From: an uncultured Planctomycetia bacterium
GTDB taxonomy: Bacteria; Omnitrophota; Gorgyraeia; Gorgyraeales; Gorgyraeaceae
Reading direction: 5' to 3'
Assembly: GCA_964566255.1 (NCBI GenBank)
Contig: CAZMID010000001.1
Span: 83,152 to 147,151 of the forward strand
DNA length: 64,000 nt
The notes under the pieces are model-generated. The model searched no databases, had not been told where the DNA came from, and saw only the letters and a list, made by a program, of their open reading frames with translations. A program made the translations under genes and the position numbers. Of this stretch, positions 38,352 through 48,453 are shown in pieces. Within the stretch, counting starts at the first letter, position 1. Every line of letters starts with the position of its first letter.

Positions 38352-38588
38352 TTAAGCTTTATCTACTAAGATCGAAAGTTCTTCATCTCTCATGCCTGCA
38401 ACGCCACTCTTTATGCGTAGATTCATTCCATCTACTTTAAGCTTTCCTTTTTTTAAAGTAGCAATGAACGGTTGATGAAAATCTAAAACCGTCATCTCTC
38501 CATCTTCGCCAGGCAATATGACACTTGAGACATTATCCTGGAATATTAAAGATGCTTCTTTTATATCTAATATAGATACCTTAAACAT
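38352..38588 (-). CDS. atpC: F1 ATP synthase epsilon subunit, N-terminal beta-sandwich domain only
   Basis: 78 aa; aligns position-by-position with the epsilon N-domain pattern (VSILDIKEASLIFQDNVSSVILPGEDGEMTVLDFHQPFIATLKKGKLKV ... ILVDKA against E. coli DVVSAE..FSG.V..V.V.GSEGELGI.PGHAPLLTAIKPG ... LADTA); the C-terminal helical hairpin is absent. Confidence 0.65.
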   Translation of the reverse strand: MFKVSILDIKEASLIFQDNVSSVILPGEDGEMTVLDFHQPFIATLKKGKLKVDGMNLRIKSGVAGMRDEELSILVDKA

Positions 38589-38597
38589 CTCGAAGTA

Positions 38598-40322
38598 TCA
38601 CTCCATCATCTGAGTTATCTTCATTACCTCAGTTGGCGTAGTTAGTCCTTGTATAATTTTATTCCATCCAGACAAGGCAAGTGATTTCATGCCGGACTTT
38701 ATTGCAGCTTGCCTTATCTTATCAGCCGAAACCCTTTCTAAAACTAATTCTTTAATTGTATTATCAAGTCTTAAGATCTCACAGACTGCTATACGCCCTC
38801 TAAAACCAGTAAAATTACATTTTTCACAACCCTTGCCTCTATAAAAAATAATATCAGCTCCTTTTATATCCTTTTTAGCAATATCTTTTCCTAAAATAGA
38901 CTGTGCTATCTGAAACTTAGCATCATTACTTATAGTCTCATCCTTTTCTTTGCAAGATGAACAAATCAACCTTACTAACCTTTGGGCAATAAAAGCCTCC
39001 ACAGAAGAAACCAATAAATAAGGCTGGACCCCTATATCTAAAAGCCTTGTCACTCCACCTGCTGCATCATTTGTATGTAATGTACTAAATATAAGATGTC
39101 CTGTTAAAGCAGCTCGTATAGTAAGTTCTGCCGTTTCAAAATCTCTTACTTCTCCTACCATCATTATGTCAGGATCATGACGCAACATACTTCTTAACCC
39201 TTCTGCAAAATCAAACTTTATCTCAGGCGCTACTTGAATCTGGCTTATACCTTCTATTTCATACTCTATAGGATCTTCTATGGTAAGGATTTTATTTTCA
39301 CTGGATTTTATTTTATTAAGGCATGTATATAACGTAGTGGTCTTACCGCTTCCTGTAGGGCCTGTTACGAATATAACGCCGTGAGGTTTTTTAATTAATT
39401 CTTCCAATATTTTTAAATCATCCTTTTCCATGCCTAATTTTTCAAGGCTAAAAAGCATCTTTGCAGGTAATATCCTTATAACAATACCTTCACCATACCT
39501 AGTAGGAATAGTAGAAATCCTCAAATCAAGTTCTTCATCGCCTACTTTTACAGTAGCACGGCCATCCTGCGGAAGACGTCTTTCTATAATATCCATCTTG
39601 GACATTATCTTTATACGAGATATTATTGCTGAGAAAAATTGCTCAATATCTTTAGGGATACTCGCATCGTACAATACTCCATCTATACGGTAACGTATAT
39701 TCATCTTGCCTCTAAAAGGTTCAATATGAATATCAGTAGCGTTTTTCTCTTTTGCATCTAAAAGAATTTGATTTACTAGATTTATAACTGAGGCGTCCTC
39801 AGTTACTTTTTCTATATCAGCTACATCTTCTTTAGCTTTATACTGTTCTTTAGACTTTCTAGGGCTTTCTGCGATAATTCTTTCTACAGTTTCAGCTCCT
39901 ACGCCGTAATATCTCCTGATGCATTCGACGATTTCTTTCTCAGTAGATAACACTTGGGTTATCTCACACCCTAAAAGCAACTTTACATCATTAAGCGGGA
40001 ATAAAGGATCAGAAGTCGCTATAGTCAGGATATTGCAGTCAAATTTTATTGGCATAATAGTATAGTGCCATGCAAATTTAGCTGGGAGCTTCTTAACAAC
40101 TGATGGATCTATCCTTATCTCCTTTAATTTCATATAAGGAATACCCAATTGTTCAGAAAGCGCCAGTAAAAGATCCTCTTCCTTTATAAGGCCCATCTTG
40201 ATTAATATTGTACCCAAGCGCTCACCAGTCTTACTTTTACGCTGTTTATCAAGCGCTTCTTTAAGTTGTTTAGAATTTATTAGATTTTTTTTAAGTAATA
40301 TCTCTCCTAATCTGATTGCCAT
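38598..40322 (-). CDS. gspE: Type II secretion / type IV pilus assembly ATPase GspE/PilB
   Basis: 574 aa; Walker A GPTGSGKTT; Asp and His boxes; tetracysteine zinc motif CSSC ... CEKC. Confidence 0.85.
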   Translation of the reverse strand: MAIRLGEILLKKNLINSKQLKEALDKQRKSKTGERLGTILIKMGLIKEEDLLLALSEQLGIPYMKLKEIRIDPSVVKKLPAKFAWHYTIMPIKFDCNILTIATSDPLFPLNDVKLLLGCEITQVLSTEKEIVECIRRYYGVGAETVERIIAESPRKSKEQYKAKEDVADIEKVTEDASVINLVNQILLDAKEKNATDIHIEPFRGKMNIRYRIDGVLYDASIPKDIEQFFSAIISRIKIMSKMDIIERRLPQDGRATVKVGDEELDLRISTIPTRYGEGIVIRILPAKMLFSLEKLGMEKDDLKILEELIKKPHGVIFVTGPTGSGKTTTLYTCLNKIKSSENKILTIEDPIEYEIEGISQIQVAPEIKFDFAEGLRSMLRHDPDIMMVGEVRDFETAELTIRAALTGHLIFSTLHTNDAAGGVTRLLDIGVQPYLLVSSVEAFIAQRLVRLICSSCKEKDETISNDAKFQIAQSILGKDIAKKDIKGADIIFYRGKGCEKCNFTGFRGRIAVCEILRLDNTIKELVLERVSADKIRQAAIKSGMKSLALSGWNKIIQGLTTPTEVMKITQMME

Positions 40323-40340
40323 AATGCTATCTCCTTGGTT

Positions 40341-41741
40341 TTACTCCTTTAATGCACCGATCATATAAAAATCCTTATCCTGCATATGATCTAGCTGCCC
40401 AGAACATATTTTTTCACAACCGCTAAGGCTATCTTCTAATCTAACATACTCTCCTTTTTTACCTGTAAATACTTCTGCAGTAATAAAAGGTTGAGTAAGA
40501 AAATTCCTGAGTTTACGTGCCCTTTCAAATACAGTTCTATCTTCTCTTGATAACTCTTCTATTCCCATAATAGAGACTATACGGCGTAATTCTTCATATT
40601 TATTCATAATCATCAATACTTCTTGAGCGATATTAAAATGTCTTTCACCTACGACCAATGGATCCAAAAATGAACTTGAGGAAAGAAGTGGATTTATAGC
40701 TGGATAAAGACCAAGCTGGACATACGAACGTGAAAGTACCATCATTGAATGAAGGTAACTGAATATACATACTACAGCCGGATCTGTTAAGTCATCGCTG
40801 GGTACATATACTGCTTCAATCGCAGTAACTGAAGCACTGGTCCCTGAGCGAATTCTTTCCTGAAAGTCACTCATCTCTGAAACAAGTGTAGGCTGATATC
40901 CTGTTTCTGAGGGGATACGGCCCAAAAGAGATGATAATTCACTTCCTGCCTGAGCAAATCTAAAAACACTATCTACGAAAAATAACACATCGCTTCCCAT
41001 CTCTTGAAAGTATTCAGCTACTGTAATACCAGTATGTACTATTTCAAATCTCGCACCAGGGGATTCGTTCATCTGTCCATACACTAAAACTGCCCTTTCC
41101 ATTATGCCCTGGTTAGTTAATTCAAGATATAACTCATTACCTTCCCTAACACGCTCTCCTGCGCCAGTAAATATAGTATAACCTTTTTGTTTTTTTACAA
41201 TATTATGCATAAGTTCCATAATAACTAAACTTTTACCAAGACCTGCGCCTCCAAGAATACCAGTCCTGGAACCTTTTACCAGAGGGAATAATATATCTAT
41301 TGCCTTTATACCTGTCTCGAGTATTTCATAACGTGTGCCGCCTTCTTTTTCAATAAATTTAGTTTTCTCAGGTCGTCTTCGGGCGTTTCTTGTAACTTCT
41401 CTATTTACAGGTCCTTTTTTATCTATAGGCTCTCCTAAAACATTCATCATTCTGCCGCAAACCTTCTCTCCTACAGGAACCTGTATCATGCTTCCTGTAG
41501 CGGTAACTTCGGCATTTCTTTGAAGACCTATAAGGGATTTTAATCCAATACACCTTACAACATTACCGACATCTGTAGCACGGCTTGATAAATATTCAAG
41601 TACCTCTAGTTGTACCTTTTGACCATCATAAGTCTGAGTCTCTAATATCTCATAGATACGAGGCGGTGCAACACCAGGAGTAAAAGCTACAATTGCAACT
41701 GGACCCTGAACTGAAACTACTTTTCCTTTTAGCATAGTCAC
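40341..41741 (-). CDS. atpD: F1 ATP synthase beta subunit
   Basis: 466 aa; P-loop GGAGLGKS; DELSEED-like region; N-terminal beta-barrel domain. Confidence 0.85.
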
Positions 41742-47500: not shown

Positions 47501-47503
47501 ATA

Positions 47504-48238
47504 CTATCCCTCTCTAACTTTTTGTTTCATTACAGGAATAACTTTCTTTAGTTTATTCTTAACGCTACCATCTATGACAAAACTTCCTATCTCTATAAAA
47601 AGACCTGCTACTACATCTTCCTGTAATTTTTCAGTCAAAGTAATATCCTTACCTAATTTAGAAGAAAGTACTGCCTTCAATTTTTCTTTTTGTTTATCTT
47701 CTAACTTAAATGCAGAAACAACCTGTACCCTATCCTGCTTAACATTAACTGGCTTTACATCCAAGGTCTTTATATCTTCAATAAGACCACTTATCAGTTG
47801 AGTGTGTAAGGTTTCTAAGTCTTTATCTGTAAAAATATACCTAACCATATCTGTTGCAATATGAATGGCTTTACTTTCCATTTCTAAAAGCATATCCTTT
47901 TCCCTCATCTTGGTATCTTTTACTGCATCAGCAATAATCCTTTTTGCCTCTTCCTTTGATCTAGCAACCAATTCTTCTCTTTCCTTCTCAGCAGTTATCT
48001 TTGCTTCTTCTTTCATCTTCTCTGATTCAGCCTTGGCCTTTTCTATCTCAATGTCTGCTTGTTTTTTGGCTCGTTCAATCTCATCTTTAAGTATCTTTTC
48101 CTTCTGCATATTCTGTTGATTAAGTTTTTGTAGCCTCTTTACTGCCCTAGCAATCTGACTATATAAAAGCCATCTTAAGAATAAAACAATAGCAGTAAAT
48201 GTAACCATCTGGATCAGAATAAAATGGATTATATTCAT
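47504..48238 (-). CDS. atpF: Fo ATP synthase b subunit fused to a delta (OSCP)-like C-terminal domain
   Basis: 244 aa; N-terminal TM helix; long Lys/Glu-rich coiled-coil; C-terminal VAGLFIEIGSFVIDGSVKNKL resembles the delta C-terminus. Confidence 0.6.
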   Translation of the reverse strand: MNIIHFILIQMVTFTAIVLFLRWLLYSQIARAVKRLQKLNQQNMQKEKILKDEIERAKKQADIEIEKAKAESEKMKEEAKITAEKEREELVARSKEEAKRIIADAVKDTKMREKDMLLEMESKAIHIATDMVRYIFTDKDLETLHTQLISGLIEDIKTLDVKPVNVKQDRVQVVSAFKLEDKQKEKLKAVLSSKLGKDITLTEKLQEDVVAGLFIEIGSFVIDGSVKNKLKKVIPVMKQKVREG

Positions 48239-48240
48239 AA

Positions 48241-48453
48241 TTATCCCCCAAATAGATTATATACGATTAAAAGTCCAATAACGGCAATAGCCTCTGCAAA
48301 TAAAAACGCCAATATCATAGCTAGTAAAATCTTAGGAGCTGCTGAAGGGTTCCTTCCTAAGGCCCTAACACTTGAATATCCTACTGCAGCTATAACACCA
48401 GACGGGCCTAAGGTACTAATTAACATTATGAGAATAACAGTAAAGTTTTTCAT
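48241..48453 (-). CDS. atpE: Fo ATP synthase c subunit (proteolipid)
   Basis: 70 aa; two TM helices joined by a polar loop ALGRNPSAAP (the ARQP-type loop); ion-binding Glu in FAEAIAVIGLL. Confidence 0.75.
   Translation of the reverse strand: MKNFTVILIMLISTLGPSGVIAAVGYSSVRALGRNPSAAPKILLAMILAFLFAEAIAVIGLLIVYNLFGG

Follow-up and report, generated by a model that had tools for sequence, protein, structure and literature searches.

Few bacterial operons are as stable as that of the F-type ATPases. Here we ask what such an enzyme might do when its genes are kept interleaved with those of a secretion/pilus machine, as they are across a phylum of ultra-small, probably predatory or parasitic bacteria, the Omnitrophota. 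The locus in question lies in a stretch of 64,000 nucleotides (nt), hereafter called the window, from an uncultured member of this phylum (assembly GCA_964566255.1, contig CAZMID010000001.1, positions 83,152 to 147,151 of the forward strand). The GC content of the window is ∼35%, and nearly all genes from 63.8 kb down to 10.2 kb lie on its minus strand, as do all features for which coordinates are given below. From 48453 down to 38352, genes for the c subunit, a fusion of b with the C-terminal domain of delta (b/delta), alpha, and gamma are followed by genes for a transmembrane (TM) PAS protein and a Cache-HAMP-PAS sensor kinase, and then by those for beta, the assembly ATPase GspE, and epsilon. 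On the 3′ side of epsilon are the genes for GspF, GspG, GspI, GspJ, GspK, a PilM-PilN fusion, and PilO.

This gene list and order had been set out in an original prediction made from the letters of the sequence alone, and the coordinates and identities of the open reading frames (ORFs) of the interleaved block match that list exactly. Protein identities were assigned by searches with Pfam and NCBIfam profiles, for which bit scores are given relative to the family cut-off. The alpha (46019..47500, 493 amino acids, aa) and beta (40341..41741) subunits exceed the NCBI equivalog cut-offs for canonical atpA and atpD, with 575 versus 484 bits for TIGR00962 and 551 versus 463 bits for TIGR01039, respectively. 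Gamma (45165..46031, 288 aa) is matched over its full length by PF00231 (E = 3.8e-36), the 70-aa c subunit (48241..48453) by ATP-synt_C PF00137 (29 bits, cut-off 24), and b/delta (47504..48238, 244 aa) by ATP-synt_B PF00430 at residues 7–133 and by OSCP PF00213 at residues 167–232. Epsilon (38352..38588, 78 aa) gives a profile match and consists of the N-terminal beta-sandwich only. The concern that the listed proteins might fail to match ATP synthase profiles is refuted by the matches to alpha, beta, gamma, c, and b, and the locus can be identified with very high confidence as an F-type ATPase/pseudopilus block. Public gene calls start beta at the ATG at 41735, two codons after the GTG used here, and the version with the GTG start is unmatched.

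One possibility offered in the original prediction was that the arrangement reflects relaxed operon constraints in a reduced genome. To place the locus among its relatives, neighborhoods were opened for beta homologs that are 59%–78% identical to the window protein, including contigs of 0.83, 1.55, and 1.99 Mb, and 16 further loci were taken with a b/delta profile and annotated against the window proteins. These related loci on public contigs bear numbers from L001 to L032. The beta protein itself is present on four public contigs, of which two metagenome contigs from the Joint Genome Institute carry the identical gene order, and its relatives are annotated as Candidatus Omnitrophota. The common order is a giant gene, a gene for a 262-aa protein (in some loci), a Peptidase_MA_2 gene, where present a gene for a response regulator with a GGDEF domain (RR-GGDEF), and then c, b/delta, alpha, gamma, beta, GspE, epsilon, and GspF through PilO. 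This order was seen in L001–L009, L011–L017, L021, L023, L029, L031, and L032, which represent ∼20 independent contigs or lineages. Wherever a locus is long enough to show it, GspE directly follows beta (17 lineages, among whose main groups beta is 55%–80% identical), and epsilon stands between GspE and GspF in 14 of the 15 lineages that extend to this point. The core interleaving is never split into two separate operons in the loci examined. Even when low-identity beta matches were opened (59%–62%; L008, L031, and L032), the same locus type was found and no canonical operon was encountered.

Local departures from the common order do occur. In L020, L021, and L025 the gamma gene comes before that of alpha, in L004 b/delta is found upstream of the peptidase, and L019 breaks off after alpha. 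The sole exception found to the position of epsilon is L031, a metagenome-assembled genome (MAG) of Omnitrophota (beta 61% identical) in which epsilon (5725-5952) is located upstream of c, directly after RR-GGDEF. Mini-ORFs resembling selfish elements (GIY-YIG, 23S_rRNA_IVP) occupy intergenic gaps of L029 at 11651-11920 and 18286-18507, and a repeat-containing spacer occupies a gap of L003 at 2579-2951. These insertions left the operon gene order unbroken. In L008, which comes from a MAG labeled Planctomycetota, the GspE that follows beta (1544-3856) is 770 aa long, with an additional PilZ domain; possible explanations are that the bin is mislabeled or that the locus exists outside the Omnitrophota. 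Because the order persists in ∼20 lineages despite beta divergence, local rearrangements, and insertions, it looks maintained rather than drifting, and the proposal of relaxed constraints is left unsupported. The layout is atypical for bacteria generally, as had been claimed, but it is typical within the phylum.

The catalytic part of the enzyme is near-canonical and is predicted to be catalytically competent. Among solved structures in the PDB, alpha and beta match canonical bacterial, chloroplast, and mitochondrial F1 chains (390–490 bits), with bacterial alpha chains as the best matches of alpha. Beta scores 400–480 bits against canonical F1 beta chains, whereas the beta chain of the Mycoplasma mobile G1-ATPase (9io5_A, 344 bits) is its weakest F1-type match. 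Walker A, the catalytic Glu (GER), and Walker B of beta are intact in 15 lineages. Walker A reads GGAGLGKS in the window and GGAA[LC]GKS in most relatives; GGAALGKS or GGAACGKS replaces GGAGVGKT in beta of L003, L004, L007, L009, L011, L013, L015–L017, L021, L023, and L029. Though unusual, this P-loop remains a valid Walker A motif. The DELSEED loop of beta is less acidic than usual, reading EELSxxD, or EEISxED in L003 and L008. Alpha retains the P-loop GDRVTGKT and the Arg-finger motif SVSRIG in 14 lineages, with GDRITGKT in one lineage, and its N terminus is ∼10 residues shorter than the canonical one.

Two other classes of ATPase were considered on the same basis. Models for the Mycoplasma type-2/3 ATPases give scores below their cut-offs, with 412 of the 600 bits demanded for NF045863, 420 of 850 for NF045858, 334 of 520 for NF045936, and 381 of 570 for NF045934. 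The N-ATPase models also remain below their thresholds (TIGR03305, 489/752 bits; TIGR03324, 493/750; TIGR03321, 61/225; TIGR03323, 16/282). Identity as an N-ATPase was ruled out, as all four models fall below both their cut-offs and the canonical models.

The c subunit is the best-conserved protein of the locus, with 73%–90% identity where beta has 62%–78%. Its R34-N35-P36 loop and its ion-binding Glu54 are invariant in 19 lineages. Read against the known I. tartaricus motif, the A-E-A-I sequence around this Glu, together with an Ile at the position of the Na+-ligand Gln, suggests that the ring may be coupled to protons. Helix 1 of c (48241-48453 and related loci) is without the usual GxGxGxG packing motif and reads GPSGVIAAVGYSS, a change that could alter ring size or packing.

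The peripheral stalk differs from the standard form. The delta part of b/delta covers positions 101–167 of the 172 in the OSCP profile, which corresponds to the C-terminal domain only, and the N-terminal domain required for a full-length delta is absent in every lineage aligned. An end-to-end alignment is obtained between b/delta and TIGR03321, the b model of the N-ATPase, but with a score of 61 bits against the cut-off of 225. The single TM helix of b/delta holds eight invariant residues, including Q10, T13, and W23. Since Gln and Thr are among these invariant positions, they imply that b would have a specific partner within the membrane. Epsilon is 78–80 aa long in the 12 lineages aligned, and in none of them does it have the C-terminal helices. 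These helices inhibit ATP hydrolysis in bacterial F-ATPases. Their loss would thus remove the usual brake on hydrolysis.

In the original prediction it was pointed out that atpB, which encodes the a subunit, is not at the locus and that a gene for a secreted metallopeptidase precedes atpE instead. Both statements hold. No a subunit is encoded in the 64-kb window, where all ORFs with multiple TM segments were identified as Mrp/Mbh/Nuo, RND, GspF, or sensor proteins; Pfam placed every such ORF of the hydrogenase cluster described below in the Mrp/Mbh/Nuo families. Only noise was returned by a search with phmmer --max for E. coli AtpB in six frames of the window and of L001–L009, which is a weak test, and by a search of the same sequences for an RL[x]GN-type motif. 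ORF-level phmmer searches of L001–L025 (E ≤ 1e-4) found no a subunit, and an inventory of the unassigned ORFs of these loci contained no a-like protein with multiple TM segments. The 10 kb past the start of the window (L026) hold only housekeeping genes and no a subunit. Overall, the a subunit is absent from each of the ∼20 related loci over the stretches covered. Two candidates for its place were tried and rejected. The giant protein was ruled out as a membrane stator, as the part within the window has no TM segment, and the 262-aa protein was ruled out as a divergent a subunit, as it has only a signal or anchor segment and one C-terminal TM helix.

The genes interspersed with the ATPase combine pseudopilins of a T2SS (type II secretion system) kind (T2SSG, T2SSK_1st, and a weak T2SSJ) with PilM, PilN, and PilO of the type IV pilus (T4P) kind. 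The GspE/PilB-family assembly ATPase (38598..40322; T2SSE 425 bits, E = 3e-127) falls under both equivalog cut-offs (561 versus 630 bits for the GspE model, 550 versus 676 for the PilB model). Its N terminus carries a tandem MshEN motif, which binds cyclic di-GMP (c-di-GMP) and matches NF053729 with 61.6 bits (cut-off 38). The Walker and tetracysteine motifs of GspE are normal. Because this ATPase is complete, with motifs of its own, the F1 enzyme does not replace the usual assembly ATPase. The platform protein GspF/PilC (37112..38335; T2SSF 206 bits, two repeats) is followed by the GspG-type major pseudopilin (36678..37097; T2SSG 116 bits plus N_methyl), a minor pseudopilin in the GspI/H position (36250..36690; N_methyl only), a GspJ-like minor pseudopilin (35619..36269; N_methyl above its cut-off, T2SSJ 27.3 bits and thus below the cut-off of 28), a GspK-like minor pseudopilin (34619..35632; T2SSK_1st 64 bits plus HHH_3), the GspL-like PilM-PilN fusion (33132..34616; PilM_2 plus PilN), and the PilO/GspM-like protein (32597..33130; PilO 31 bits), whose gene is the last of the block. 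Neither PilQ nor PilT is encoded in the 64-kb window, and no secretin GspD, GspC, or prepilin peptidase GspO was recognized by eye among the window ORFs or in related loci. The latter three may be encoded elsewhere in the genome.

Signaling genes form part of the block as well. The PAS protein (44427..45164) is membrane-anchored, with two TM segments, a coiled coil, and no output domain, and was found only in the window, L001, and L006. The sensor histidine kinase (41738..44425), with periplasmic Cache, HAMP, PAS, HisKA, and HATPase_c domains, was found only in the window, L001, L002, and L006. Together they make up a 3.4-kb insert between gamma and beta that is a lineage-specific addition and lies outside the conserved design. 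Of the two-component genes announced for this region, the sensor kinase is present, but neither a response regulator nor a GGDEF gene that could be its partner is encoded in the window, so that only half of such a system is represented. Most other lineages have an RR-GGDEF gene for a diguanylate cyclase (∼300 aa) between the peptidase and c, which is missing in the lineage of the window. A second link to c-di-GMP in the window is a 651-aa protein (2993-4948) with an N-terminal PilZ domain, which is a c-di-GMP receptor, a TM segment, and a coiled coil; its large C-terminal domain has no family match.

The genes at the 5′ end of the block are also conserved in place. The secreted or periplasmic zinc metallopeptidase Peptidase_MA_2 (48450..49241; 47.9 bits, cut-off 32.4) has a signal peptide and lies upstream of c in nearly all related loci, and its HExxH motif, intact in the window, and a downstream Glu are invariant in the alignment. 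Before it is the gene for the 262-aa protein (49286..50074), which has no Pfam family, a signal peptide or N-terminal anchor, a C-terminal TM helix, and an acidic, Pro-rich tail. Homologs occupy the same place in L004, L006, L014, L019, L021, L023, and L024. Farther upstream is the 3′ part of the giant surface-protein gene (50206..64000), with at least 4597 codons, whose frame runs off the end of the window. The part of its product within the window is composed of 16% Thr, 11% Gly, 10% Ser, and 8% Asn, and gives only fragmentary Pfam matches (Amnionless, Reelin subrepeat). The corresponding place in L004, L006, L009, L011, L016, L017, L021, and L029 is likewise taken by a giant gene.

The spacing of the genes is consistent with co-transcription. 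From the peptidase to PilO, adjacent genes are separated by anything from a 20-nt overlap to an 18-nt gap, which bears out the tight packing described in the original prediction. A consensus scan found no terminator-like site in the minus-strand intergenic gaps between 50074 and 32597. Immediately past the stop codon of the giant gene is a terminator-like hairpin (50133..50170) with a 13-bp stem, a 12-nt loop, and a following U-run, with a predicted stability of −22 kcal/mol (z = −5.4 versus shuffles); its long loop caused it to be missed by the consensus scan. This hairpin is the probable upstream boundary of the ATPase/pseudopilus operon, and it suggests that the giant gene and the block belong to separate, or attenuated, units of transcription. 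Just after PilO, a promoter-like site at 32569-32542 precedes bioB and, with 11 of 12 matching positions, is the best of the region. Given the tight spacing, the lack of an internal terminator, the 5′ hairpin, and the 3′ promoter-like site, a single transcript of ∼17.5 kb and about 19 genes, from the 262-aa gene through PilO, seems likely. Rfam gave no match over the entire window, for example to a c-di-GMP riboswitch.

Beyond the block, the window contains further gene clusters. A biotin synthesis cluster (28747-32552; bioB, bioF, and bioD by eye) begins 44 nt after PilO. In the region 20416-27761, translations read by eye look like the products of hydrogenase maturation genes (hypA/D/E plus a fragment resembling hypF) and of a sulfhydrogenase-like set of ferredoxin/FAD oxidoreductase genes. 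This region is followed by a group-4 [NiFe] hydrogenase of the Mbh type (11092-20416), which is complete and includes an Mrp antiporter module. Its members are MrpF, MnhE, two Proton_antipo_M proteins, a NuoK-like protein, MnhB, MbhD/E, the large subunit, and a NuoH-like protein. This Mbh/Mrp complex is predicted to be ion-translocating and would normally feed an ATP synthase.

The outline of this arrangement is already published. In many Omnitrophota, according to Seymour et al. (2023; Nat Microbiol, PMC10066038), a "non-respiratory" or "symbiotic" F-type ATPase is encoded beside type-4a pilus (T4aP) clusters, often alongside giant ORFs. By the account in that paper, this applies to 56 of 111 Velamenicoccia species, to 57 of 66 contigs within a distance of 10 kb, and to every class, and "respiratory" and "symbiotic" F-type clades are separated. 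[quoted passage not shown] This assignment of alpha is unsupported by the curated hidden Markov model (HMM) cut-offs, and on the strength of the scores given above we would caution against filing the ATPase with the Mycoplasma motors. The available text and supplements describe no subunit inventory, missing a subunit, or beta-GspE-epsilon-GspF interleaving, and no embedded GGDEF or kinase genes, conserved peptidase, or extreme conservation of c. In the part of supplementary file 6 available to us, genome 221 has F-type alpha and beta and V-type I and K, with no V-type A/B, among the KEGG orthology (KO) identifiers listed; either genes are missed at the thresholds used or the complement of subunits departs from the usual one. 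The KO tables of this source, so far as they are available, do show false negatives. A 2026 preprint reported alpha and beta in 125 of 176 complete genomes, gamma in only 30 of the 176 at strict thresholds, and V/A-type subunits in 70%–99% of Gorgyraeia outside the order Pluralincolimonadales.

What, then, might this enzyme do? The explanation that we prefer, to which we attach roughly even confidence, is that it is an accessory, hydrolysis-biased, ion-coupled rotary ATPase that serves the co-expressed pseudopilus machine under c-di-GMP and sensor control. The locus is one case of a conserved Omnitrophota super-operon that pairs an F-type set (c, b/delta, alpha, gamma, beta, and epsilon) with a pseudopilus machine, and according to this explanation the ATPase, the pseudopilus apparatus, and the giant adhesin would be made together. 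We infer regulation by c-di-GMP and sensors from the MshEN domain of GspE, the RR-GGDEF gene of most loci, and the PAS protein and kinase of this one. The co-regulation of energy conservation with pilus/secretion function that was originally proposed likewise fits a conserved single block with its own signaling genes and a c-di-GMP-type GspE. The role of the enzyme would be accessory in at least one species, since for Ca. Orphnella occulta, which carries the same ATPase/pseudopilus locus, a V-type ATP synthase has been reported (PMC8542988). An accessory role is also in line with the V/A-type subunits reported for most Gorgyraeia outside the Pluralincolimonadales and with the distinction drawn by Seymour et al. 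between "respiratory" and "symbiotic" F-type clades.

The mechanism within this explanation is more tentative and falls somewhat short of even confidence. The short epsilon would bias the enzyme toward ATP hydrolysis. Because the c-ring keeps its carboxylate, it would still be coupled to ions, and an ion path would in turn call for a stator subunit that is encoded elsewhere or is unrecognized. The ATPase may then energize the apparatus, most probably by building, in a cell that lives by fermentation, an ion-motive force at the machine. This route fits the report (PMC10790770) that PulF, a platform protein of the T2SS, acts as an ion channel and is needed for the endopilus to be assembled.

Several points weigh against the explanation just given. 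With no a subunit in the window, in the 10-kb flank, or in the ∼20 related loci, the stator subunit that it requires is an assumption. Missing as well are the delta N-terminal domain and the part of the alpha N terminus that binds it. The stator is thus remodeled, and the way in which the enzyme works may differ from that of a standard F1Fo. Finally, PMC10066038 reads the system as a motor for motility or attachment and not as an ion pump.

An alternative is that the locus encodes the main F1Fo ATP synthase of the cell, with an unlinked atpB, fed by the Mbh/Mrp complex of the window, and that the gene order records an old operon fusion without functional coupling. Epsilonproteobacteria provide known examples of unlinked atpB genes. 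In favor of a housekeeping enzyme are the scores of alpha and beta above the canonical atpA/atpD cut-offs, the invariant Glu of c, the group-4 [NiFe] hydrogenase with its Mrp module, which should build an ion gradient, and the lack of V-type genes in the 74 kb examined. However, at least one species with the locus has been reported to possess a V-type ATP synthase (Ca. Orphnella occulta; PMC8542988), and V/A-type ATPases are common in the phylum (2026 preprint). Also against it, the adjacency of beta and GspE survives in every lineage examined despite rearrangements and insertions, epsilon is without a regulatory domain and delta without its N-terminal domain in every lineage aligned, and signaling genes are embedded in the ATPase part. 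We consider this alternative unlikely.

The published "symbiotic" reading would make the complex a mechanical motor that functions without an a subunit, in which ATP would rotate gamma/epsilon and the c-ring against the b/delta stator with no proton path. By analogy with the M. mobile motor, rotation might be coupled to the pseudopilus platform or to the giant protein for host attachment or gliding. Such a motor would account for the absence of a at every locus even though nearly all else is kept together, for the giant surface-protein gene directly upstream in most lineages, and for the remodeled stator, and PMC10066038 both places alpha near the Mycoplasma type-2/3 enzymes and proposes attachment and motility. 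The profile results point in another direction, as alpha and beta fall far under the Mycoplasma family cut-offs and every canonical F1 beta listed is a better match to beta than the M. mobile G1 beta is. To our knowledge, the Mycoplasma clusters are without c, b, delta, and epsilon, and the window has all four. If there were no ion path, it would be difficult to see why the gene with the strongest conservation keeps an invariant ion-binding Glu, and the operon has a complete GspE motor of its own. A mechanical motor of this kind therefore seems improbable.

In a further alternative, the machine could be a true hybrid that has no a subunit, in which the c-ring and the b/delta stator dock on GspF/PilMNO or on another membrane partner, and in which the F-type rotor and the GspE hexamer, on one platform, deploy the pseudopilus and the giant adhesin. 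We regard this proposal as quite improbable. Were it true, the system would belong to a new class in which a rotary motor assists secretion or attachment, and its c-ring would be the first that is known to operate in the absence of a. The remaining alternative, that the order is a mis-assembly (a concern raised at the outset) or the genes are decaying remnants, has a probability near zero, since identical loci occur in independent metagenomes, the order is conserved in ∼20 lineages that include contigs of 0.8–2 Mb, all ORFs are intact with their catalytic motifs, and nothing was found in its support.

Whether the enzyme is a dedicated power unit, as we prefer, or a rotor without a, the locus would represent a rotary ATPase put to a new use, and it would hint at the means by which Omnitrophota attach to their hosts or attack them. 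The near-canonical F1, the conserved Glu of c, the stator without a and the delta N-terminal domain, the short epsilon, and the signaling modules provide concrete tests for the "symbiotic ATPase."

Comparison with known systems places the locus more precisely. With the canonical F1Fo operon (atpIBEFHAGDC) it shares alpha and beta equivalogs, gamma, a c subunit with its carboxylate, b, the epsilon N-terminal domain, and intact catalytic residues. It differs in having no a or atpI, a delta C-terminal domain fused to b, a short epsilon and alpha N terminus, and atp genes interleaved with pseudopilus and signaling genes. The MMOB1660/1670 motor and MSC_0618/0619 of Mycoplasma similarly have alpha/beta-type genes outside a respiratory context together with giant surface proteins, a resemblance that may be one of functional analogy. 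Unlike the Mycoplasma types, however, the beta of the window has no long N-terminal extension (464 aa versus 705–784), and c, b/delta, and epsilon are retained. The N-type ATPase has a b subunit of the same ∼245-aa architecture and likewise no separate delta, whereas its operon order and its AtpQ/AtpR and a genes are absent from the window locus.

The secretion part resembles T2SS/T4aP systems with an MshE-type ATPase in its MshEN GspE, GspF, GspG-type pseudopilin, GspJ/K-like proteins, and PilM/N/O. It departs from these systems in mixing T2SS pseudopilins with PilMNO and in that the window encodes neither a secretin nor GspC, and neither a prepilin peptidase nor PilT. West-Roberts et al. (2023; bioRxiv 10.1101/2023.11.21.568195) described giant genes beside T2SS-like loci in Omnitrophota, with the ATP synthase unmentioned. 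Those loci precede the giant gene and include gspD and rcpC, in which they differ from the window; in both, the giant gene adjoins gspE/gspF-type genes.

The closest counterparts are the "symbiotic" ATPase/T4aP loci of PMC10066038. The alpha and beta genes of the window lie within 10 kb of pilus-type genes in a member of the Omnitrophota and are in fact interleaved with them, and going by shared synteny this alpha would belong to the "symbiotic" and not the "respiratory" clade. Compared with those loci, the lineage of the window has the PAS protein and kinase pair and no RR-GGDEF gene. The window locus is the same thing, with F-type ATPase genes placed together with pilus-type genes in a genome of the Omnitrophota.

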